Origin: Escherichia phage 64795_ec1 | DNA: 39,235 bases | Direction: 5' to 3' (one strand) | Sequence record: NC_031114.1 | In this document: positions 2,692 through 35,723 of the stretch, in pieces | Numbering within the stretch: the stretch's first letter is position 1 | How the letters are laid out: every line of letters begins with the position of its first letter | Program-made: the position numbers and the translations under genes | Notes under the pieces: model-generated | What the model was told of the DNA's origin: nothing | The model's input: only the letters and a program-made list of their open reading frames with translations | Databases searched by the model: none

Positions 2692-5343
2692 ATGAACACG
2701 ATTAACATCGCTAAGAACGACTTCTCTGACATCGAACTGGCTGCTATCCCGTTCAACACTCTGGCTGACCATTACGGTGAGCGTTTAGCTCGCGAACAGT
2801 TGGCCCTTGAGCATGAGTCTTACGAAATGGGTGAAGCACGCTTCCGCAAGATGTTTGAGCGTCAATTGAAAGCTGGTGAGGTTGCGGATAACGCTGCCGC
2901 TAAGCCTCTCATTACTACCCTGCTCCCTAAGATGATTGCACGCATCAACGACTGGTTTGAGGAGGTGAAAGCTAAGCGTGGCAAGCGCCCGACAGCCTTC
3001 CAGTTCCTGCAAGAAATCAAGCCGGAAGCTGTAGCGTACATCACCATTAAGACCACTCTGGCTTGTCTGACTAGCGCGGATAACACAACAGTTCAGGCTG
3101 TAGCAAGCGCAATCGGTCGAGCAATTGAGGATGAGGCGCGATTCGGTCGCATCCGTGACCTTGAGGCCAAGCACTTCAAGAAAAACGTTGAGGAGCAACT
3201 AAACAAGCGCGTAGGTCACGTCTACAAGAAAGCATTCATGCAGGTTGTCGAGGCTGACATGCTCTCTAAGGGTCTAATGGGCGGCGAGGCGTGGTCTTCA
3301 TGGCACAAGGAAGACTCCATTCACGTAGGTGTTCGCTGCATTGAGATGCTCATTGAGTCAACCGGAATGGTTAGCTTACACCGCCAAAACGCTGGCGTAG
3401 TGGGGCATGACTCTGAGACTATCGAACTCACGCCGGAATACGCTGAGGCTATCGCAACCCGTGCGGGTGCACTGGCTGGCATCTCTCCGATGTTCCAACC
3501 TTGCGTGGTTCCTCCTAAGCCTTGGACTGGTATTACTGGAGGTGGCTATTGGGCCAACGGTCGCCGTCCTCTGGCACTGGTGCGCACTCACAGCAAGAAA
3601 GCACTGATGCGCTACGAAGACGTTTACATGCCTGAGGTGTACAAGGCGATTAACATTGCGCAAAACACCGCATGGAAAATCAACAAGAAAGTCCTAGCGG
3701 TCGCCAACGTAATCACCAAGTGGAAGCACTGCCCTGTAGAGGACATCCCCGCGATTGAACGTGAAGAACTCCCGATGAAACCGGAAGACATCGACACGAA
3801 TCCTGAGGCGCTCACCGCTTGGAAACGTGCTGCCGCTGCTGTATACCGCAAAGACAAGGCACGCAAGTCTCGCCGTATCAGCCTTGAGTTCATGCTTGAG
3901 CAAGCCAACAAGTTCGCTAACCATAAGGCCATCTGGTTCCCTTACAACATGGACTGGCGCGGTCGTGTTTACGCTGTGTCAATGTTCAACCCGCAAGGTA
4001 ACGACATGACCAAGGGTCTGCTGACGCTGGCTAAAGGTAAACCAATCGGTAAAGAGGGTTACTACTGGTTGAAAATCCACGGTGCAAACTGCGCTGGTGT
4101 CGATAAGGTTCCGTTCCCTGAGCGCATCAAGTTCATTGAGGACAACCACGAGAACATCATGGCTTGCGCTAAGTCTCCACTGGAGAACACTTGGTGGGCT
4201 GAGCAAGATTCTCCGTTCTGCTTCTTAGCGTTCTGCTTTGAGTACGCTGGGGTTCAGCACCACGGCCTTAGCTACAACTGCTCGCTGCCTCTGGCGTTCG
4301 ATGGGTCTTGCTCTGGTATCCAGCACTTCTCCGCGATGCTTCTCGATGAGGTAGGCGGTATGGCTGTTAACCTACTGCCTAGTCCTACCGTTCAGGATAT
4401 CTACGGGATTGTCGCTAAGAAAGTCAACGTGATTCTACAAGAAGACGTAATCAACGGGACCGATAACGAAGTAGTCACCGTGACCGATGAGAACACTGGG
4501 GAAATCTCTGAGAAAGTCAAGCTGGGCACTAAGGCGCTGGCTGGTCAATGGCTGGCTTACGGTGTTACTCGCAGCGTGACTAAGCGTTCAGTCATGACGC
4601 TGGCTTACGGGTCCAAAGAGTTCGGCTTCCGCCAACAAGTGCTGGAAGATACCATTCAGCCAGCTATTGATTCCGGTAAGGGTCTTATGTTCACTCAACC
4701 GAATCAGGCTGCTGGGTACATGGCTAAACTGATTTGGGAAGCTGTGAGCGTCACGGTGGTGGCTGCGGTTGAAGCAATGAACTGGCTTAAGTCTGCTGCT
4801 AAGCTGCTTGCTGCTGAGGTCAAAGATAAGAAGACTGGGGAGATTCTTCGCAAGCGTTGCGCTGTACATTGGGTTACTCCTGATGGCTTCCCTGTGTGGC
4901 AGGAATACAAGAAGCCTATCCAGACTCGCTTGAACCTGATTTTCCTCGGTCAGTTCCGTCTACAGCCCACCATTAACACAAACAAGGATAGTGAGATTGA
5001 CGCTCACAAACAGGAGTCCGGTATAGCTCCTAACTTTGTGCATAGCCAAGATGGTAGCCACCTGCGTAAGACTGTAGTGTGGGCACACGAGAAGTACGGA
5101 ATCGAATCGTTTGCACTGATTCACGACTCCTTCGGGACCATTCCGGCTGACGCTGCCAACCTGTTCAAAGCTGTACGCGAAACTATGGTTGACACCTATG
5201 AGTCTTGTGATGTACTGGCTGACTTCTATGAGCAGTTCGCTGACCAGTTACACGAGTCTCAATTGGATAAAATGCCAGCACTTCCGGCTAAAGGTAACTT
5301 GAACCTACAGGACATCCTTAAGTCAGACTTCGCGTTCGCGTAA
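2692..5343 (+). CDS. 1: T7-type single-subunit DNA-dependent RNA polymerase (gene 1)
   Basis: 883 aa, MNTINIAKNDFSDIELAAIPFNTLADHYGERLAREQLALEHESYEMGEARFRKMF…, ends …LKSDFAFA. Confidence 0.99.
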   Translation: MNTINIAKNDFSDIELAAIPFNTLADHYGERLAREQLALEHESYEMGEARFRKMFERQLKAGEVADNAAAKPLITTLLPKMIARINDWFEEVKAKRGKRPTAFQFLQEIKPEAVAYITIKTTLACLTSADNTTVQAVASAIGRAIEDEARFGRIRDLEAKHFKKNVEEQLNKRVGHVYKKAFMQVVEADMLSKGLMGGEAWSSWHKEDSIHVGVRCIEMLIESTGMVSLHRQNAGVVGHDSETIELTPEYAEAIATRAGALAGISPMFQPCVVPPKPWTGITGGGYWANGRRPLALVRTHSKKALMRYEDVYMPEVYKAINIAQNTAWKINKKVLAVANVITKWKHCPVEDIPAIEREELPMKPEDIDTNPEALTAWKRAAAAVYRKDKARKSRRISLEFMLEQANKFANHKAIWFPYNMDWRGRVYAVSMFNPQGNDMTKGLLTLAKGKPIGKEGYYWLKIHGANCAGVDKVPFPERIKFIEDNHENIMACAKSPLENTWWAEQDSPFCFLAFCFEYAGVQHHGLSYNCSLPLAFDGSCSGIQHFSAMLLDEVGGMAVNLLPSPTVQDIYGIVAKKVNVILQEDVINGTDNEVVTVTDENTGEISEKVKLGTKALAGQWLAYGVTRSVTKRSVMTLAYGSKEFGFRQQVLEDTIQPAIDSGKGLMFTQPNQAAGYMAKLIWEAVSVTVVAAVEAMNWLKSAAKLLAAEVKDKKTGEILRKRCAVHWVTPDGFPVWQEYKKPIQTRLNLIFLGQFRLQPTINTNKDSEIDAHKQESGIAPNFVHSQDGSHLRKTVVWAHEKYGIESFALIHDSFGTIPADAANLFKAVRETMVDTYESCDVLADFYEQFADQLHESQLDKMPALPAKGNLNLQDILKSDFAFA

Positions 5344-5351
5344 CGTCAAAT

Positions 5352-5374
5352 TAATACGACTCACTATAGAGGGA
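5352..5374 (+). promoter_or_regulatory. T7-RNAP promoter phi1.1A
   Basis: TAATACGACTCACTATAGAGGGA, +1 at 5369. Confidence 0.85.
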
Positions 5375-5525: not shown

Positions 5526-5654
5526 ATGCGTAACTTCGAAAAGATGACCAAACGTTCTAACCGTAACGCTCATGACTTCGAGGCAACCAAAGGTCGTAAG
5601 TTTAATAAACCATTACGCACCCGTGCGCATAAACGCTGCTGGGAGGGTAAATAA
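5526..5654 (+). CDS. 1.1: gene 1.1 small basic protein
   Basis: 42 aa MRNFEKMTKRSNRNAHDFEATKGRKFNKPLRTRAHKRCWEGK. Confidence 0.8.
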   Translation: MRNFEKMTKRSNRNAHDFEATKGRKFNKPLRTRAHKRCWEGK

Positions 5655-5655
5655 G

Positions 5656-5928
5656 ATGGGACGTCTGTATAGTGGCAATCTGGCGGCATACAAAGATGCT
5701 ATCGAGCGCCTCAGAGAAGACCATGCTGTAGATGTGGTCACTGAGACTTATCGACGTGAAGACTACGCACAGCGCCGATGGGTAGCTGGTGAGACTCTTC
5801 GAGTGGTCTTGCGGAATGGCGTAGAGTTGACATCCAAGAGGTTCGAACAGGGTGATGAGGATGTACGCTGCAACGCACAGACCGAGTGGTTACGCAAGGT
5901 GCATAGTGATTTGAAGCACTGGAAGTAA
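5656..5928 (+). CDS. 1.2: gene 1.2 protein (host dGTPase inhibitor family), divergent allele
   Basis: 90 aa starting MGRLYSGNLAA and ending …DLKHWK; stop TAA is the first triplet of phi1.3. Confidence 0.75.
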   Translation: MGRLYSGNLAAYKDAIERLREDHAVDVVTETYRREDYAQRRWVAGETLRVVLRNGVELTSKRFEQGDEDVRCNAQTEWLRKVHSDLKHWK

Positions 5929-5948
5929 TACGACTCAGTATAGGGAGA
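5926..5948 (+). promoter_or_regulatory. T7-RNAP promoter phi1.3
   Basis: TAATACGACTCAGTATAGGGAGA, +1 at 5943. Confidence 0.85.
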
Positions 5949-5952
5949 ACCA

Positions 5953-6369
5953 ATGAACGACATAGAACGATTCAACGCAAAGACTGAACCATGCGGAGAA
6001 TGTATTCGTTGGACTGGTCGAATCCAGCCTAACGGGTACGGTCAGTTACGATTAAACGGTAAAACACAGTATGCACACAGAGCAGCTTACACACTGTTCA
6101 ATGGAGAAATACCAGAAGGATACGTGGTTATGCACTCCTGCGATAACAGATGGTGTGTAAACCCAAGGCACCTAACTTTAGGAACACAATCTGATAACCT
6201 CATTGACATGACCAGAAAAGGTAGGCACAGTAAGACCGTAATACCAAACGATCACATAGAGGGAATCAGGAATGATACCCGATCTTCCTACGTAATAGCT
6301 AGGGAGTGGGGAGTGAATCCATCAACTATCCAAAAGATTAAATCTGGAAAGAATAGGAGATTTGTATGA
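5953..6369 (+). CDS. free-standing HNH homing-type endonuclease
   Basis: 138 aa; motif HSCDNRWCVNPRHLTLGTQSDNLIDM (H-x-C-D-N-x-x-C-x-N-P-x-H-L…N) and a helix-turn-helix-like C-terminus (VIAREWGVNPSTIQKIKSGK). Confidence 0.85.
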   Translation: MNDIERFNAKTEPCGECIRWTGRIQPNGYGQLRLNGKTQYAHRAAYTLFNGEIPEGYVVMHSCDNRWCVNPRHLTLGTQSDNLIDMTRKGRHSKTVIPNDHIEGIRNDTRSSYVIAREWGVNPSTIQKIKSGKNRRFV

Positions 6370-7436
6370 ACATTAAGACCAGCCCGTTTAAAGCCGTGTC
6401 CTTTGTTGAATCCGCCGTGAAGAAGGCGTTAGACAATGCTGGATACCTAATTGTCGATTGTAAATATGATGGTGTACGTGGGAACATCTGCGTAGACAAT
6501 ACCGCTAACAGTTGCTGGCTATCTCGTGTATCTAAAACGATTCCGGCACTGGAGCACCTAAACGGATTTGATGTTCGCTGGAAGAGTCTGCTTAACGATG
6601 ACCGTTGCTTCTACAAAGATGGCTTTATGCTTGATGGGGAACTCATGGTCAAAGGCGTAGACTTTAACACCGGGTCTGGCCTACTGCGTACCAAATGGCT
6701 CAACAAGAAGAACTTTGAGTTCGACGTTGGCGGTGTGCCACCACTCAAGGGGTCCAAGGTTGAGTTCGCATTGGACACCAAACGTCTGAGTGTCCGGTTG
6801 TACGCTATCCTCCCGCTGCACATCGTGGAGTCTGGAGAAGACTGCGATGTCATGACGTTGCTCATGCAGGAACACGTTAAGAACATGCTGCCTCTGCTAC
6901 AGGAATACTTCCCTGAAATAGAATGGCAAGCGGCTGAGTCTTACGAGGTTTACGACATGGTAGAACTACAGCAACTGTACGAGAAGAAGCGAGCGGAAGG
7001 GCATGAGGGTCTCATTGTGAAAGACCCTATGTGCATCTACAAGCGCGGTAAGAAGTCCGGCTGGTGGAAAATGAAACCTGAGAACGAAGCTGACGGTATC
7101 ATTCAGGGTCTTGTGTGGGGAACAGAAGGTTTAGCCAATGAAGGTAAAGTAATCGGATTTGAGGTGCTTCTTGAGAGTGGTCGTGTAGTTAACGCCACAA
7201 ACATCTCTCGCGCCTTAATGGATGAGATCACCGAGACAGTAAAAGAGGCCACCCTGAGTCAATGGGGATTCTTTAGCCCATATGGTATTGGCGACAACGA
7301 TGCCTGTACGATTAACCCTTACGATGGCTGGTCGTGTCAAATCAGCTACATGGAGGAAACACCTGATGGCTCTCTGCGTCACCCATCGTTCGTAATGTTC
7401 CGTGGCACCGAGGACAACCCTCAAGAGAAAATGTAA
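6366..7436 (+). CDS. 1.3: ATP-dependent DNA ligase (gene 1.3)
   Basis: 356 aa, MNIKTSPFKAVSFVESAVKKALDNAGYLIVDCKYDGVRGN… (KxDG adenylation motif). Confidence 0.97.
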   Translation: MNIKTSPFKAVSFVESAVKKALDNAGYLIVDCKYDGVRGNICVDNTANSCWLSRVSKTIPALEHLNGFDVRWKSLLNDDRCFYKDGFMLDGELMVKGVDFNTGSGLLRTKWLNKKNFEFDVGGVPPLKGSKVEFALDTKRLSVRLYAILPLHIVESGEDCDVMTLLMQEHVKNMLPLLQEYFPEIEWQAAESYEVYDMVELQQLYEKKRAEGHEGLIVKDPMCIYKRGKKSGWWKMKPENEADGIIQGLVWGTEGLANEGKVIGFEVLLESGRVVNATNISRALMDEITETVKEATLSQWGFFSPYGIGDNDACTINPYDGWSCQISYMEETPDGSLRHPSFVMFRGTEDNPQEKM

Positions 7437-10570: not shown

Positions 10571-10573
10571 AAC

Positions 10574-10660
10574 ATGATTATTCACGAAATGGGTTTATAC
10601 GATTTGATTTATCATCTTGCTTTCTTACTGGCAATGGTATACGTATTGACCCGTAACTAA
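10574..10660 (+). CDS. hypothetical 28-aa hydrophobic micro-ORF
   Basis: MIIHEMGLYDLIYHLAFLLAMVYVLTRN in ~85 bp between gene 3.5 and phi3.8; no clear SD. Confidence 0.2.
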   Translation: MIIHEMGLYDLIYHLAFLLAMVYVLTRN

Positions 10661-10662
10661 TT

Positions 10663-10685: not shown

Positions 10686-10721
10686 CCACAACGGTTTCCC
10701 TTTCAACACAAGGAGGAAGCT

Positions 10722-12913
<2,192 letters not shown>

Positions 12914-29774: not shown

Positions 29775-32700
29775 ATGGATAAGTACGATAAGAACGTACC
29801 AAGTGATTATGATGGTCTGTTCCAAAAGGCGGCTGATGCCAACGGGGTCTCGTATGACCTTTTACGTAAAGTCGCTTGGACGGAATCACGCTTTGTACCT
29901 ACAGCAAAATCTAAGACTGGACCATTAGGCATGATGCAGTTCACCAAGGCAACCGCTAAGGCACTTGGTCTGCGAGTTACCGATGGTCCAGATGATGACC
30001 GACTAAACCCTGAGTTGGCTATCAATGCTGCCGCCAAGCACCTTGCAGGTCTGGTAGGGAAGTTTGATGGCGATGAACTCAAAGCTGCCCTTGCATACAA
30101 CCAAGGCGAGGGACGCTTGGGTAATCCTCAACTTGAGGCGTACTCTAAGGGAGACTTCGCGTCCATCTCTGAGGAAGGACGGAACTACATGCGTAACCTT
30201 CTGGATGTTGCTAAGTCACCTATGGCTGGACAGTTAGAAACTTTTGGAGGTATCACCCCAAAGGGTAAAGGCATTCCGGCTGACGTTGGACTAGCTGGAA
30301 TAGACCATAGTCAGAAAGTAACACAGGAACTTCCTGAGTCCACAAGTTTTGACGTTAAAGGTATCGAACAGGAGGCTCCGGCGAAACCATTCGCCAAGGA
30401 CTTTTGGGAGACCCACGGAGAAACACTTGATGAGTACAACAGTCGTTCAACCTTCTTCGGATTCAAAAATGCTGCCGAAGCTGAACTCTCCAACTCAGTC
30501 GCTGGGATGGCTTTCCGTGCTGGTCGCCTCGATAATGGTTTTGATGTGTTTAAAGACACCATTACGCCGACTCGCTGGAACTCTCACATCTGGACTCCAG
30601 AAGAGTTAGAGAAGATTCGAACTGAGGTTAAGAACCCTGCGTATATCAACGTGGTAACTGGTGGTTCTCCTGAGAATCTTGACGACCTCATTAAGCTGGC
30701 TAACGAGAACTTTGAGAATGACTCACTCGCTGCCGAAGCTGGCCTCGGTGCTAAACTGAGTGCTGGCATTATTGGCGCTGGTGTGGACCCTCTTAGTTAT
30801 GTTCCCATGGTTGGTGTAACTGGTAAGGGCTTTAAGTTAATCAATAAGGCTCTTGTGGTTGGTGCAGAAAGTGCTGCGCTGAACGTTGCATCCGAAGGTC
30901 TCCGCACATCCGTAGCTGGTGGCGATGCAGATTATGCTGGTGCTGCCTTAGGTGGCTTTGTGTTTGGCGCTGGTATGTCTGCAATCAGTGATGCTGTAGC
31001 TGCTGGTCTGAAACGTAGTAAACCAGAAGCTGAGTTCGACAATGAGTTCATTGGTCCCATGATGCGGATGGAAGCCCGTGAGACAGCGCGTAACGCCAAC
31101 TCTGCGGACCTCTCTCGGATGAACACTGAGAACATGAAGTTTGAAGGTGAATACAAAGGCGTTCCATATGAGGAACTTCCGACCGAAAAGGGTGCTGTGG
31201 TTCTCCATGACGGCTCCATACTTAGTGCGAGCAACCCAATCAACCCCAAGACTCTCAAAGAGTTCTCCGAGGTTGACCCTGAGAAAGCGGCACGAGGAAT
31301 CAAACTAGCAGGGTTCACTGAGATAGGGTTAAAGACCTTAGGCTCAGACGACGCTGATATTCGACGGGTAGCTATTGACCTAGTGCGGTCTCCTACCGGA
31401 ATGCAATCAGGTTCCTCAGGGAAGTATGGTTCAACAGCTTCGGACATTTTCGAGAAACTTCGTGGCACTGACCAGCGTACTTACAACGACTTGTATAAGG
31501 CGATGTCTGACGCGATGAAAGACCCTGAGTTCTCCACTGGCGGCGCTAAGATGTCTCGCGAAGAAGCTCGTTACACTATCGAGCGTCGAGTGTCCTTGGC
31601 TATTGAGAACCCTGAGCTACAGAAGGCTTTAACTCCTAACGAGCGAATCGTAATGGACATCGTTAAGCGACATTATGACACCAAGCGTGAACTTATGGAG
31701 AACCCTGCGGTCTTTGGTAACACGAAGGCTGTGAGTATCTTTCCGGAGAGTAGACACAAGGGAACATATGTTCCACATGTGTACGACAAGTACGCTAAGG
31801 CACTCAAAATTCAACAATATGGTGCTGAGGGCTTACAGGAAGGTATCGCTCGGTCATGGATGTGTAGCTACGATTTGAGGCCTGCGGTAAAGGCCCGTAT
31901 TGACGAAGCACTTAAAGAGATGCACGGTGTAGAGGAAGTCACACATGATATGGTGTATAAGTACGCTATGGATAAAGCATACGGTATCTCTCACTCAGAC
32001 AGGTTCACTAATAGCTCCATCATTGAGGAGAACATTGAGGGTCTTGTTGGTATTGAGAATAACTCATTCCTTGAAGCACGAAACCTCTTTGACTCCGACT
32101 TAGCAATCACCATGCCAGATGGTCAGCAATTCTCTGTGAACGATTTGAGGGACTTTAGTATGTTCCGTATCATGCCAGCGTATGACCGCCGTATCAACGG
32201 TGACATAGCCATCATGGGGTCTACCGGTAAAACCACTAAGGAACTTAAGGATGAGATTTTGGCTCTCAAAGCGAAAGCTGAGGGTGACGGTAAGAAGACT
32301 GGCGAGGTTCATGCTCTAATGGATACCGTTAAGATTCTTACTGGTCGTGCTCGACGCAATCAGGACACTGTGTGGGAAACCTCACTGCGTGCCATTAATG
32401 ACCTAGGGTTCTTCGCCAAGAACGCCTATATGGGTGCTCAGAACCTTACGGAGATTGCTGGGATGATTGCCACGGGTAACGTGCGTGCTCTTGGTCACGG
32501 TATCCCAATTCTACGTGATACACTCTACAAGTCTAAACCAGTTTCCGCTAAGGAACTTAAGGAACTCCATGCGTCTCTGTTCGGGAAGGAGGTGGACCAG
32601 TTGATTAGACCTCAACGTGCTGACATAGTGCAGCGTCTAAGGGAAGCAACTGACACAGGGCCTGTTGTGGCGAACATCGTAGGAACCTTAAAGTATTCCA

Positions 32701-33581
32701 CACAGGAACTAGCTGCTCGCTCTCCATGGACTAAGCTGCTTAATGGAACCACTAACTACCTTCTTGATGCTGCGCGTCAAGGTATGCTTGGGGACGTTAT
32801 TAGTTCTACCCTAACAGGTAAGACTACCCGCTGGGAGAAAGAAGGATTCCTTCGTGGTGCCTCCGTAACTCCTGAGCAGATGGCTGGAATCAAGGCTCTC
32901 ATCAAGGAACATATGGTACGTGGTGAGGACGGGAAGTTTACCGTTAAGGATAAGCACGCGTTCTCTATGGACCCTCGTGCTATGGACTTATGGAGACTGG
33001 CTGACAAGGTAGCTGATGAGGCGATGCTGCGTCCACACAAGGTGTCCTTACAGGATTCCCATGCGTTCGGAGCATTAGGTAAGATGGTCATGCAGTTTAA
33101 GTCTTTCACTATCAAGTCCCTTAACTCTAAGTTCCTGCGAACCTTCTACGATGGGTACAAGAACAACCGAGCGATTGACGCTGCGCTGACTGGTATCATA
33201 TCTATGGGTCTCGCTGGTGGCTACTACGCTATGGCTGCACACGTCAAAGCATATGGAATGCCTAAGGAGAAACGTAAAGAGTACTTGGAGCGAGCACTGG
33301 ACCCAACCATGATTGCCCACGCTTCGTTGTCTCGTAGTTCTCAATTGGGTGCTACTTTGGCTATGGCTGACCTAGTTGGTGGCCTGTTCGGGGTTGAGTC
33401 CTCAAAGATGGCCCGCTCTACGATTCTGCCTAAAGACACCATGAGGGAGCGTGACCCTAATAAGCCTTATACCTCGTGGGAGGTAATGGGTAATATGGGT
33501 TCCAACATTCTTGAACAGATGCCATCGGCTGGATTTGTGGCTAACGTTGGGGCTTCCCTACTTAATCTGCTGGCGTGGTGA
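29775..33581 (+). CDS. 16: internal virion protein D with N-terminal lytic transglycosylase domain (gene 16); reading frame ends early at TGA 33579-33581
   Basis: 1268 aa; …GVSYDLLRKVAWTESRFVPTAKSKTGPLGMMQFTKATAKALGL… (transglycosylase motif). Confidence 0.9.
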   Translation: MDKYDKNVPSDYDGLFQKAADANGVSYDLLRKVAWTESRFVPTAKSKTGPLGMMQFTKATAKALGLRVTDGPDDDRLNPELAINAAAKHLAGLVGKFDGDELKAALAYNQGEGRLGNPQLEAYSKGDFASISEEGRNYMRNLLDVAKSPMAGQLETFGGITPKGKGIPADVGLAGIDHSQKVTQELPESTSFDVKGIEQEAPAKPFAKDFWETHGETLDEYNSRSTFFGFKNAAEAELSNSVAGMAFRAGRLDNGFDVFKDTITPTRWNSHIWTPEELEKIRTEVKNPAYINVVTGGSPENLDDLIKLANENFENDSLAAEAGLGAKLSAGIIGAGVDPLSYVPMVGVTGKGFKLINKALVVGAESAALNVASEGLRTSVAGGDADYAGAALGGFVFGAGMSAISDAVAAGLKRSKPEAEFDNEFIGPMMRMEARETARNANSADLSRMNTENMKFEGEYKGVPYEELPTEKGAVVLHDGSILSASNPINPKTLKEFSEVDPEKAARGIKLAGFTEIGLKTLGSDDADIRRVAIDLVRSPTGMQSGSSGKYGSTASDIFEKLRGTDQRTYNDLYKAMSDAMKDPEFSTGGAKMSREEARYTIERRVSLAIENPELQKALTPNERIVMDIVKRHYDTKRELMENPAVFGNTKAVSIFPESRHKGTYVPHVYDKYAKALKIQQYGAEGLQEGIARSWMCSYDLRPAVKARIDEALKEMHGVEEVTHDMVYKYAMDKAYGISHSDRFTNSSIIEENIEGLVGIENNSFLEARNLFDSDLAITMPDGQQFSVNDLRDFSMFRIMPAYDRRINGDIAIMGSTGKTTKELKDEILALKAKAEGDGKKTGEVHALMDTVKILTGRARRNQDTVWETSLRAINDLGFFAKNAYMGAQNLTEIAGMIATGNVRALGHGIPILRDTLYKSKPVSAKELKELHASLFGKEVDQLIRPQRADIVQRLREATDTGPVVANIVGTLKYSTQELAARSPWTKLLNGTTNYLLDAARQGMLGDVISSTLTGKTTRWEKEGFLRGASVTPEQMAGIKALIKEHMVRGEDGKFTVKDKHAFSMDPRAMDLWRLADKVADEAMLRPHKVSLQDSHAFGALGKMVMQFKSFTIKSLNSKFLRTFYDGYKNNRAIDAALTGIISMGLAGGYYAMAAHVKAYGMPKEKRKEYLERALDPTMIAHASLSRSSQLGATLAMADLVGGLFGVESSKMARSTILPKDTMRERDPNKPYTSWEVMGNMGSNILEQMPSAGFVANVGASLLNLLAW

Positions 33582-33730
33582 ATGCTCCCAACAAAGCCAC
33601 TGAGCAGGACTTCATGACTGGCTTGATGAACTCTACCAAGGAGTTAGTACCTAACGACCCTCTTACTCAACAGCTTGTGTTGAAGATTTATGAGGCGAAT
33701 GGTGTTAACTTGAGGGAACGTCGGAAATAA
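33578..33730 (+). other. 16: displaced 3' segment of gene 16 (last 50 codons in the other frame)
   Basis: VNAPNKATEQDFMTGLMNSTKELVPNDPLTQQLVLKIYEANGVNLRERRK, stop TAA 33728-33730 inside phi17; 1268+50 codons equals the T7 gp16 length as I recall it. Confidence 0.6.
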
Positions 33731-33750
33731 TACGACTCACTATAGGGAGA
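33728..33750 (+). promoter_or_regulatory. T7-RNAP promoter phi17
   Basis: TAATACGACTCACTATAGGGAGA, +1 at 33745. Confidence 0.88.
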
Positions 33751-33802: not shown

Positions 33803-34675
33803 ATGGCTAACGTAATTAAAACCGTTTTGACTTACCAGTTAGATGGCTCCACTCGTGATTTTAATATCCCGTTTGAGTATCTAGCCCGTAAGTTCGTAGT
33901 GGTAACTCTTATTGGTGTAGACCGCAAGGTCCTTACGATTAATACAGACTACCGTTTTGCTACTCGCACTACTATCTCACTAACCAAGGCTTGGGGTCCA
34001 GCGGATGGATATACTACAATAGAGCTACGTCGAGTAACCTCCACGACCGACCGCTTGGTTGACTTTACGGATGGCTCAATCCTCCGTGCGTATGACCTTA
34101 ACGTCGCTCAGATTCAAACGATGCACGTAGCGGAAGAGGCCCGTGACTTAACTGCGGATACTATCGGTGTCAATAATGATGGTAACTTGGATGCTCGTGG
34201 TCGTCGAATTGTGAACCTAGCGAACGCTGTAGATGACCGTGACGCTGTTCCGTTTGGTCAACTTAAGGCTATGAACCAGAACTCATGGCAGGCGCGTAAT
34301 GAGGCCTTACAGTTCCGTAATGAGGCTGAGACTTTCAGAAATCAAGCGGAGGGCTTTAAGACCGAGTCTGGCACTAACGCTGCTAATACGAAGCAGTGGC
34401 GTGATGAGACCAAAGGTTTCCGAGACGAAGCTGAGCAGTTTAAGAATACTGCTGGTCAATATTCTACATCCGCTGGGAACTCTGCGACCGCAGCACACCA
34501 ATCTGAGGTAAACGCTGAGAACTCCGCAACAGCCTCCGCTAACTCTGCCCAGTCAGCAGAACAGCAAGCAGACCGCGCTAAGGTGGAAGCAGACAAGTTG
34601 GGTAACTGGAATGCACTTGCAGGGGCAATTGATAGTGTTGACGGGAACAATGTCATGTTTAAAGGCGACATTTAG
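33803..34675 (+). CDS. 17: tail fibre protein (gene 17), proximal part: T7-type tail-anchor and coiled-coil shaft
   Basis: 290 aa MANVIKTVLTYQLDGSTRDFNIPFEYLARKFVVVTLIGVDRKVLTINTDYRF…; stops at TAG 34673-34675. Confidence 0.9.
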   Translation: MANVIKTVLTYQLDGSTRDFNIPFEYLARKFVVVTLIGVDRKVLTINTDYRFATRTTISLTKAWGPADGYTTIELRRVTSTTDRLVDFTDGSILRAYDLNVAQIQTMHVAEEARDLTADTIGVNNDGNLDARGRRIVNLANAVDDRDAVPFGQLKAMNQNSWQARNEALQFRNEAETFRNQAEGFKTESGTNAANTKQWRDETKGFRDEAEQFKNTAGQYSTSAGNSATAAHQSEVNAENSATASANSAQSAEQQADRAKVEADKLGNWNALAGAIDSVDGNNVMFKGDI

Positions 34676-35675
34676 AACACCTGCAAATATCGTAGGTGGT
34701 GGCTTAATCTCCAACGGTTCTGGTCATTTTGAGAAAGGCGTGGCTGTTAAGGGTGAATTAGATGTTGTAGGGGATGTTTCGGCGCATAAGGATGTGTGGG
34801 TAGATGGTGTAGTTGTAGCCAATGGTGGGATACAGCAACATTCAAATCCTAATACCCTTAATGAGGTGTGGAGGGTGTTTATTAAGGGGGTCCCACTCCA
34901 TATTGGAAACCGACAAGGTCTTCATCTTGGTTGGAACGAGACCAGTAATGGCGAGTCGTGTTTTGTTACTAACAAAGGTGCAGGTGGTGGTGGTTTTGTT
35001 TTCCGCACGGTAAACTTTGAGAACACTGCTGAGATTGGTCGCGTTACATTCACTGGTAACGGTGGAGTACGCGCCTTCGATTTACAAGCAATTAATGGTG
35101 CTCGTATTGAGGCTGGGAATAATATAGTTGGTGCGAGCATTTTCTCAGGAATGGGCGCCTGCCAGTTCAATACCGAAGGTAACTTGCTGGGAGGTCTATG
35201 GAACAGAGTTGGAGGTGACCTATACAACTACCTGTGGAACAAGAGTCACTTTGCTAAGCCACCTGCTGGGGTTCAATTGTTTACAGGCCGTGGTGGGGAC
35301 TACCTTGAGGGCCTTGTTGATACTACAGCTGTTGGGTTCCGCTGGTTCAATTCTGACAGAAGGCTTAAAGAAAACATAAAGGTTGTACGTTCCGCTGATG
35401 ATATGCTTAAGATTATCCGCTCATACATCCCGGTTTCCTATAAGTATAAGGACTCTGAGTATGTTGATAAGCGTGGCAGAACGGTAAGCGTTACCGGTAA
35501 GAACTCTCGTGCTGGTTTCATTACTCAGGATTTGATTCGAATCTGGCCAGAGGCGGTGGACGTGCTATCCGATGGTATGCAATCCCCAGACCCTAACCAA
35601 ATCATCGGTGGACTCATGCTTCTTGTCAAGAATCTTGATGAACGCGTACAGGAGTTGGAGAAAAATAACGTTTAA
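34674..35675 (+). CDS. 17: tail fibre (gene 17), distal receptor-binding part with C-terminal S74-like intramolecular chaperone, in the other frame
   Basis: RTPANIVGGGLISNGSGHFEKGVAVKGELDVVGD… then …NSDRRLKENIKVVRSADDMLKIIRSYIPVSYKYKD…IIGGLMLLVKNLDERVQELEKNNV; no independent SD, so a continuation of the proximal ORF is assumed. Confidence 0.75.
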   Translation, partial: RTPANIVGGGLISNGSGHFEKGVAVKGELDVVGDVSAHKDVWVDGVVVANGGIQQHSNPNTLNEVWRVFIKGVPLHIGNRQGLHLGWNETSNGESCFVTNKGAGGGGFVFRTVNFENTAEIGRVTFTGNGGVRAFDLQAINGARIEAGNNIVGASIFSGMGACQFNTEGNLLGGLWNRVGGDLYNYLWNKSHFAKPPAGVQLFTGRGGDYLEGLVDTTAVGFRWFNSDRRLKENIKVVRSADDMLKIIRSYIPVSYKYKDSEYVDKRGRTVSVTGKNSRAGFITQDLIRIWPEAVDVLSDGMQSPDPNQIIGGLMLLVKNLDERVQELEKNNV

Positions 35676-35723
35676 GGATAACACTGGATTAGGACCAAGG
35701 ATGGTATTTAATAAGGAGGATAC

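Follow-up and report, generated by a model that had tools for sequence, protein, structure and literature searches.

How much of gene 1.2 can differ between T7-like phages while the product still inhibits the host dGTPase, Dgt? The question is raised by positions 5656..5928 (+ strand) of Escherichia phage 64795_ec1 (NC_031114.1), where a gene in the usual place of gene 1.2 resembles its T7 counterpart closely at the ends and poorly in the middle. The window, by which we mean the whole stretch of DNA that was analysed, is 39,235 nucleotides long and is a Teseptimavirus (T7-like phage) genome, 93% of its length aligning to T7 at 91.6% identity in the whole-genome comparison. We consider it probable that the locus holds a functional gene 1.2 of Berlinvirus/BA14 type, more distantly of T3 type, whose product would inhibit Dgt in the manner of T7 Gp1.2 and would present a surface insensitive to PifA.

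Within the class II region, the gene directly follows gene 1.1 and precedes the promoter phi1.3 and the DNA ligase gene, as on the T7 map. Its 90 residues are encoded from an ATG at 5656 to a TAA at 5926-5928, and the preliminary description had the coordinates, strand and length right when it gave 90 rather than 85 residues. The Shine-Dalgarno sequence GGAGGG, read from the sequence at 5642..5647 (+ strand), falls within the 3' end of gene 1.1 and 8-9 nt before the ATG, and a ribosome binding site is annotated at the equivalent place in the record of phage Pila. A longer in-frame start at 5572 (118 aa) was rejected, since it would run across gene 1.1 in a different frame, every homologue begins MGRLYS and the Shine-Dalgarno sequence precedes 5656. 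The RNA polymerase gene (2692-5343) lies upstream; between it and gene 1.1 (5526..5654, + strand; 42 aa; PF08200, E 6.5e-14) are sites at 5352 and 5427 that resemble the T7 promoter consensus. Downstream, a promoter scan located the T7-type class II promoter phi1.3, TAATACGACTCAGTATAGGGAGA, at 5926-5948 (+ strand), overlapping the gene 1.2 stop codon; it has one mismatch to the T7 consensus where chance would give 0 matches, and phi1.3 is also annotated in the T7 record. It is followed by a gene for a 138-aa HNH homing-type endonuclease (5953..6369, + strand; PF13392, E 9e-16), which overlaps the start of the ligase gene (6366-7436) at 6366.

The strong divergence from T7 Gp1.2 noted in the preliminary description is borne out by alignment. 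Over the full length, the two proteins share about 40% of their residues (39-41%, or 39-46% in the comparison that included BA14), and three small insertions account for the length of 90 rather than 85 aa. Residues 1-11 are the same as in T7 Gp1.2, and the central 53 residues are about 17% identical; submitted alone to BLASTP against T7 Gp1.2, these 53 residues gave no significant match (E 0.87). Likeness had been reported only for the first ~11 residues and a terminal HWK. The first part of that statement stands, but the C-terminal likeness is wider and extends over the last ~25 residues (DEDV..N..T.WL....LK.WK).

The further proposal that the middle of the protein is unrelated to Gp1.2 does not survive profile and structure comparison. 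Pfam family PF10922 matches the protein from end to end (profile positions 1-85 of 85, E 7.8e-12, 45.8 bits against a cut-off of 22), as does phrog_2949, the PHROG that also holds T7 Gp1.2 (E 5.4e-34, positions 1-85 of 85). Aligned by hhalign, the clade of 90-aa proteins and T7 Gp1.2 match over 85/85 columns with a probability of 98.8% and an E value of 1e-16, and phmmer matches the 90-aa protein to PDB entries 2MDP and 7U65-67 at E 1e-9. An AlphaFold2 model built on 71 homologues (pLDDT 86, pTM 0.73) predicts the order H6-23, E25-36, E41-52, E57-63, H68-89, which is the alpha-beta-beta-beta-alpha order of T7 Gp1.2, and shows the two helices on a three-stranded antiparallel sheet that characterise 2MDP and 7U65-67. 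With this model, the top three Foldseek hits, and the sole significant ones in the PDB, were the Gp1.2 entries 7U66_G, 7U65_G and 2MDP; superposition on Dgt-bound 7U66 chain G gave TM scores of 0.84/0.89 and an rmsd of 1.9 A. As far as a predicted model can tell, the product is a full-length Gp1.2 homologue with the Gp1.2 fold. It therefore shares with T7 Gp1.2 (NP_041962; PDB 2MDP, 7U65-7U67) the Pfam family, the PHROG, the fold, the first 11 residues and the C-terminal helix with its DEDV, WL and LK.WK motifs, whereas the T7 protein has 5 fewer residues. Together, reading frame, PF10922, phrog_2949 and fold mark 5656..5928 as gene 1.2, coding for a predicted inhibitor of host dGTPase (Dgt).

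Matches to the 90-aa protein occur in 431 deposited phage records (tblastn), and the novelty suggested by the preliminary description disappears among them, since several known Gp1.2 proteins are more than 80% identical to it over their full length. By global pairwise alignment, amino acid identity is 98% to EmilieLinder (Bas103), 97% to JeanTinguely (Bas64) and 92% to Cedecea phage Yanou; it is 83% to Berlinvirus BA14 (80-84% for BA14 and its relatives) and 56% to T3 gp1.2. The protein thus groups with Berlinvirus rather than T7 Gp1.2 in an otherwise Teseptimavirus genome. Full-gene DNA matches were found in seven T7-like genomes, namely Yanou, AV103, PDP351P2, Bas103, SYGE1 and JeanTinguely at 90-93% and Bas104 at 84%, and Serratia phage Pila holds a sister version of the allele; in the T7-like carriers and in Pila, the gene is annotated as dGTPase inhibitor. 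The number of Teseptimavirus carriers, about eight, is an estimate from deposited nucleotide matches. The identical 90-aa sequence is present on four further metagenome or sequencing-run contigs, two of them about 39 kb long. In the protein database, the clade comprises 70 cluster representatives, and conservation figures are given over 71.

The closest relatives, JeanTinguely (MZ501081) and EmilieLinder (PQ850602), share the length of 90 aa, the position between gene 1.1 and phi1.3/ligase and the T7-like backbone, and differ at two to three residues (E17 against K, G66 against S, and E77 against A in JeanTinguely). BA14 (YP_002003457) together with S523, BSP161, CarlSpitteler and FE44 has a 90-aa Gp1.2 that is collinear without gaps, and Gp1.2 of this type is annotated 'dGTPase inhibitor; target for F exclusion'. 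The BA14 gene differs in that its DNA is only about 79% identical, and it belongs to another genus with its own downstream promoter type. T3 gp1.2 (CAC86267, 92 aa) is more distant. It shares the family and the insertions relative to T7 over the full length, but has two extra annotated N-terminal Met codons and a considerably diverged beta-sheet region. The T3 record describes its product as a dGTP triphosphohydrolase inhibitor that is needed to overcome F exclusion; a literature search for dGTPase biochemistry of T3 gp1.2 found none, and the T3 activity rests on this record annotation. A Berlinvirus-like gp1.2 allele in Teseptimavirus has already been described and linked to PifA resistance in the BASEL papers (PMC8594841, PMC11990801; clade in figures S5E and S6A). 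The allele class is therefore already deposited, annotated and published, and the window is one more Teseptimavirus carrier. Judged by its sequence, the divergence of the 90-aa protein from T7 is real but ordinary, that of an intact gene 1.2 of a known allele.

The preliminary description also proposed module exchange at this locus, and here the DNA comparison agrees with it. In bins of 30 nt, identity to T7 is 90-100% up to 5609 and 80-86% over 5640-5699. It then drops to 26-53% over 5700-5909, where the window is 60-100% identical to BA14 and 70-100% identical to JeanTinguely, Bas103 and Yanou, and it returns to 93% over 5910-5939, at the gene 1.2 3' end and phi1.3, where T7, Yanou, Pila and JeanTinguely all lie at 93-100%. 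The cassette is closest to BA14-type genes, and the blastn breakpoints against T7 fall at 5693 and 5911. In the whole-genome comparison, no T7 homology was found across 5694-6351, a block that is one of five such segments of the window.

Three parts of the gene can be distinguished on this basis, all on the + strand. The 5' part, 5656..5699, is T7-like DNA that encodes the conserved N-terminus MGRLYSGNLAAYK, including G2/R3, and the start of helix alpha1. The replaced cassette, 5700..5909, encodes the rest of alpha1, three beta strands and most of alpha2. The third part, 5910..5948, comprises the conserved 3' end of gene 1.2 (..LKHWK and the stop codon) and phi1.3. Relative to T7, the cassette is thus limited by the first ~12 codons on one side and by the last ~6 codons and the phi1.3 promoter on the other, and the promoter that follows it is of T7 type rather than BA14 type. 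Because of the bin identities and the T7-type promoter, the exchange is bounded by two stretches conserved throughout the family and able to serve as homology arms, the MGRLYSGNLAA codons and the ..LKHWK-TAATACGACTCA junction; 5656..5699 probably served as the left arm and 5910..5948 as the right one.

A small patch in the last ~45 nt of gene 1.1 (5610-5639) is 50% identical to T7, 63% to Yanou and Pila and 96% to JeanTinguely and Bas103. The exchanged segment may accordingly have its left edge inside gene 1.1, or two exchanges may be nested. In Pila, BA14-like sequence extends from codon 1 onward. Escherichia phage EG1 (MG488277) carries two tandem gp1.2 genes (1157-1423 and 1423-1695), one encoding a T7-like protein of 88 aa (56% identical to T7) and the other a BA14-like protein of 90 aa (81% identical to the window protein), which suggests that redundancy between the two allele classes is incomplete. 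From the BA14-like start at codon 1 in Pila and the tandem copies in EG1, it follows that the gene 1.2 locus has been exchanged more than once. As to the age of the exchange in the window, gene 1.2 and the RNA polymerase gene have similar dS values to JeanTinguely (0.49 and 0.34), and the exchange is therefore old rather than recent. A recent transfer from BA14-like phages was rejected, since dS to BA14 in gene 1.2 is about 1.6 (saturated) against the 0.49 to JeanTinguely.

What the cassette would mean for Dgt inhibition can be judged from the T7 complex. The cryo-EM structure (Klemm et al. 2022, PMC9478638) places helix alpha1 of T7 Gp1.2 between two Dgt subunits. The G2 N-terminal amine and the R3 side chain reach into the Dgt active site, where they push the (d)GTP phosphates and H126 aside, while L4, Y5, S6, G7, A10 and V65 contact Dgt subunit A and F12, K13 and Y28 contact R436 and F437 of Dgt subunit E, Y28 through a cation-pi interaction with R436; the remainder of Gp1.2 'hangs out into the solvent' (PMC9478638). 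In the 90-aa protein, 9/11 of these contact residues are the same as in T7, compared with 24/74 of the non-contact residues (Fisher p = 0.003). G2, R3, L4, Y5, S6, G7, A10, K13 and the valine of DEDV are kept; F12 is conservatively replaced by Y, and Y28 aligns with T29, a position that is non-aromatic across the clade. Among the 71 clade representatives, conservation is 95% or higher at G2, R3, L4, Y5, G7, K13 and V70 (the valine of DEDV). The divergent residues fall in parts of Gp1.2 for which the cryo-EM paper reports no Dgt contact, and the sequence comparison marks the replaced portion as mainly the Gp1.2 body outside the Dgt contacts.

Based on the conserved contacts and the annotation of relatives, we infer that the 90-aa protein inhibits E. 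coli Dgt as T7 Gp1.2 does. Its helix alpha1 would wedge between two Dgt subunits, and its processed N-terminus would enter the Dgt active site and hold (d)GTP in a non-catalytic pose, so that dGTP would be preserved for phage DNA replication. At the subunit-E side, where F12 is replaced by Y and Y28 by T29, the interface may differ from that of T7.

This difference bears on the suggestion, also made in the preliminary description, that the allele may have an altered target, which would mean adaptation to a host dGTPase or dNTPase other than the one bound by T7 Gp1.2. Phages with this allele class have been reported on Cedecea, Serratia, Salmonella and Erwinia as well as E. coli, the Y28 contact is lost, and positions 10 (M/A/I) and 12 (F/Y/L) vary within the clade; the hint of incomplete redundancy from EG1 would fit as well. 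We nevertheless consider altered specificity unlikely. The identical contacts include every residue that enters the Dgt active site, the divergent residues lie in solvent-facing non-contact parts, and the same allele, with proteins 97-98% identical, is found in phages that were both isolated and grown on E. coli K-12. BA14 is an E. coli phage according to its host field, and T3, too, is an E. coli phage; the annotation of T3 gene 1.2 also names dGTP triphosphohydrolase as the enzyme inhibited. T7-like inhibition of Dgt remains the preferred reading.

A second alternative holds that gene 1.2 is a non-functional accessory gene whose divergence reflects relaxed drift. It draws on a note in the T7 record, according to which T7 requires gene 1.2 only when the host overproduces Dgt. 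Nothing in the gene itself looks decayed, however. The reading frame is intact and preceded by its Shine-Dalgarno sequence, the predicted fold is confident, and 48/90 positions are at least 90% conserved in the 71 cluster representatives. In comparisons with six clade members, dN/dS of gene 1.2 is 0.04-0.15, as low as the 0.03-0.04 of the RNA polymerase gene. Gene 1.2 is under strong purifying selection, and the dN/dS values effectively refute a pseudogene or drift, to which we assign a negligible chance.

The HNH endonuclease gene next to gene 1.2 raises a further possibility, namely that the allele was co-converted when this element invaded the 1.2/1.3 intergenic site and has no selective meaning of its own. 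The HNH gene starts 25 nt after gene 1.2, precisely in the gap from phi1.3 to the ligase gene; this slot also holds related HNH genes in about 22 phages from several genera, and Yanou and PDP351P2 hold both the allele and an HNH gene 94-95% identical to that of the window. The two are nonetheless found apart. JeanTinguely, Bas103 and Pila carry the allele class with no HNH at the site downstream of gene 1.2, and on the four contigs that encode the identical 90-aa protein, the next gene starts 79 nt after gene 1.2 with no HNH between, this gene being a 340-aa ligase in the two longest of the four. Outside Teseptimavirus, the phages whose HNH genes are closest (e.g. Klebsiella phage 6998) have a T3-like gp1.2 that is only 58% identical. 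Within the window itself, the T7-type phi1.3 separates the cassette from the HNH gene, leaving two separate non-T7 blocks. HNH-driven co-conversion was rejected because the allele and the HNH gene are not physically linked across genomes and the allele occurs without the endonuclease; as an origin of the allele it is very improbable, and the HNH endonuclease is not linked to the gp1.2 allele.

In T7, the place of the HNH gene (5953-6369) is taken by ~40 nt that separate phi1.3 from the ligase gene and contain the RNase III site R1.3; the T3 record annotates R1.3 at the corresponding position. The HNH relatives in this slot are 60-95% identical and occur in phages of Klebsiella, Enterobacter, Shigella, Yersinia and Cedecea, a distribution that fits a site-specific homing element.

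If Dgt binding was left in place, as the contact residues suggest, the exchange of a functional gene 1.2 for one of another allele class may owe more to host defence. JeanTinguely, whose Teseptimavirus genome carries a Berlinvirus-like gp1.2, resists PifA, whereas T7 and Bas65 are sensitive (PMC8594841). Of the phages Bas102-104, PifA inhibits only Bas102, the one with a T7-like allele (Humolli et al. 2025, PMC11990801); PifA resistance was found to correlate with one Gp1.2 clade, which implies resistance of Bas103 and Bas104 (PMC11990801). The T7 allele is thus a PifA trigger, whereas the allele class of the 90-aa protein is associated with PifA resistance. Secondary citations credit T3 gp1.2 with preventing F exclusion (e.g. 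PMC3276506), and Gp1.2 is possibly sensed by ApeA too (PMC11482910). By analogy with JeanTinguely and Bas103/Bas104, the allele class would be expected to render the phage insensitive to PifA. The replaced beta sheet and the helix faces that point to the solvent may be what sensors such as the F-plasmid PifA see, and exchanging this exposed surface would then let the phage escape PifA sensing.

Two observations complicate this picture. Bas105, a Kayfunavirus whose allele is different again, is sensitive to PifA, so that no simple two-allele rule applies (Humolli et al., PMC11990801). PifA sensitivity of T7 also depends on the capsid protein gp10, and escape needs mutations in both genes (PMC10286901). 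In the window, gp10A is 93.4% identical to T7 and 94.2% identical to JeanTinguely. Since it is T7-like and gp10 is a PifA determinant, PifA resistance of this phage can therefore not be read from gene 1.2 alone.

A bolder proposal is that Gp1.2 of the Berlinvirus/T3 type is a dual-function protein, its divergent face actively neutralising PifA or an ApeA-like sensor while the N-terminus still inhibits Dgt. We put this forward tentatively, as the less likely course. If true, it would explain how Teseptimaviruses whose gp10, itself a PifA trigger, is still T7-like become PifA-resistant after a gene 1.2 swap alone, and why both allele types persist side by side in EG1. On the preferred reading, that of passive escape through an altered surface, the locus is a natural cassette swap in which the putative Dgt-binding 'warhead' and the downstream promoter are kept and only the solvent-exposed body is exchanged. 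Such a pattern agrees with selection exerted by PifA and other sensors of the inhibitor itself, and it could guide allele-swap mapping of the Gp1.2 surface sensed by PifA.

Several other parts of the window depart from T7. Further blocks without blastn homology to T7 lie at 426-566, 10571-10661 and 10704-11355, the last of them in the place of the T7 HNH endonuclease gene 3.8 and the beginning of gene 4; JeanTinguely lacks this last block too. The gene 16 reading frame (29775-33581) encodes 1268 aa compared with the 1318 aa of T7. Near 33566, the window lacks one base that T7 has (AAT-CTGCTGG against AATGCTGCTGG), which shifts the frame and leads to a stop at 33581. The last ~150 nt of the gene (33560-33735 region), up to the normal stop at the phi17 promoter, are still there but in a different frame. 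Either an error in sequencing or assembly is responsible, or the C-terminal frameshift is genuine. The tail-fibre gene (33803-35675) is present as two overlapping reading frames in different frames. The first (33803-34675) encodes 290 aa that are 92% identical to residues 1-290 of T7 gp17, and the second (34611-35675) encodes 354 aa; over 34654-35712, blastn finds no homology to T7. The frame break falls where a non-T7 receptor-binding module joins on.
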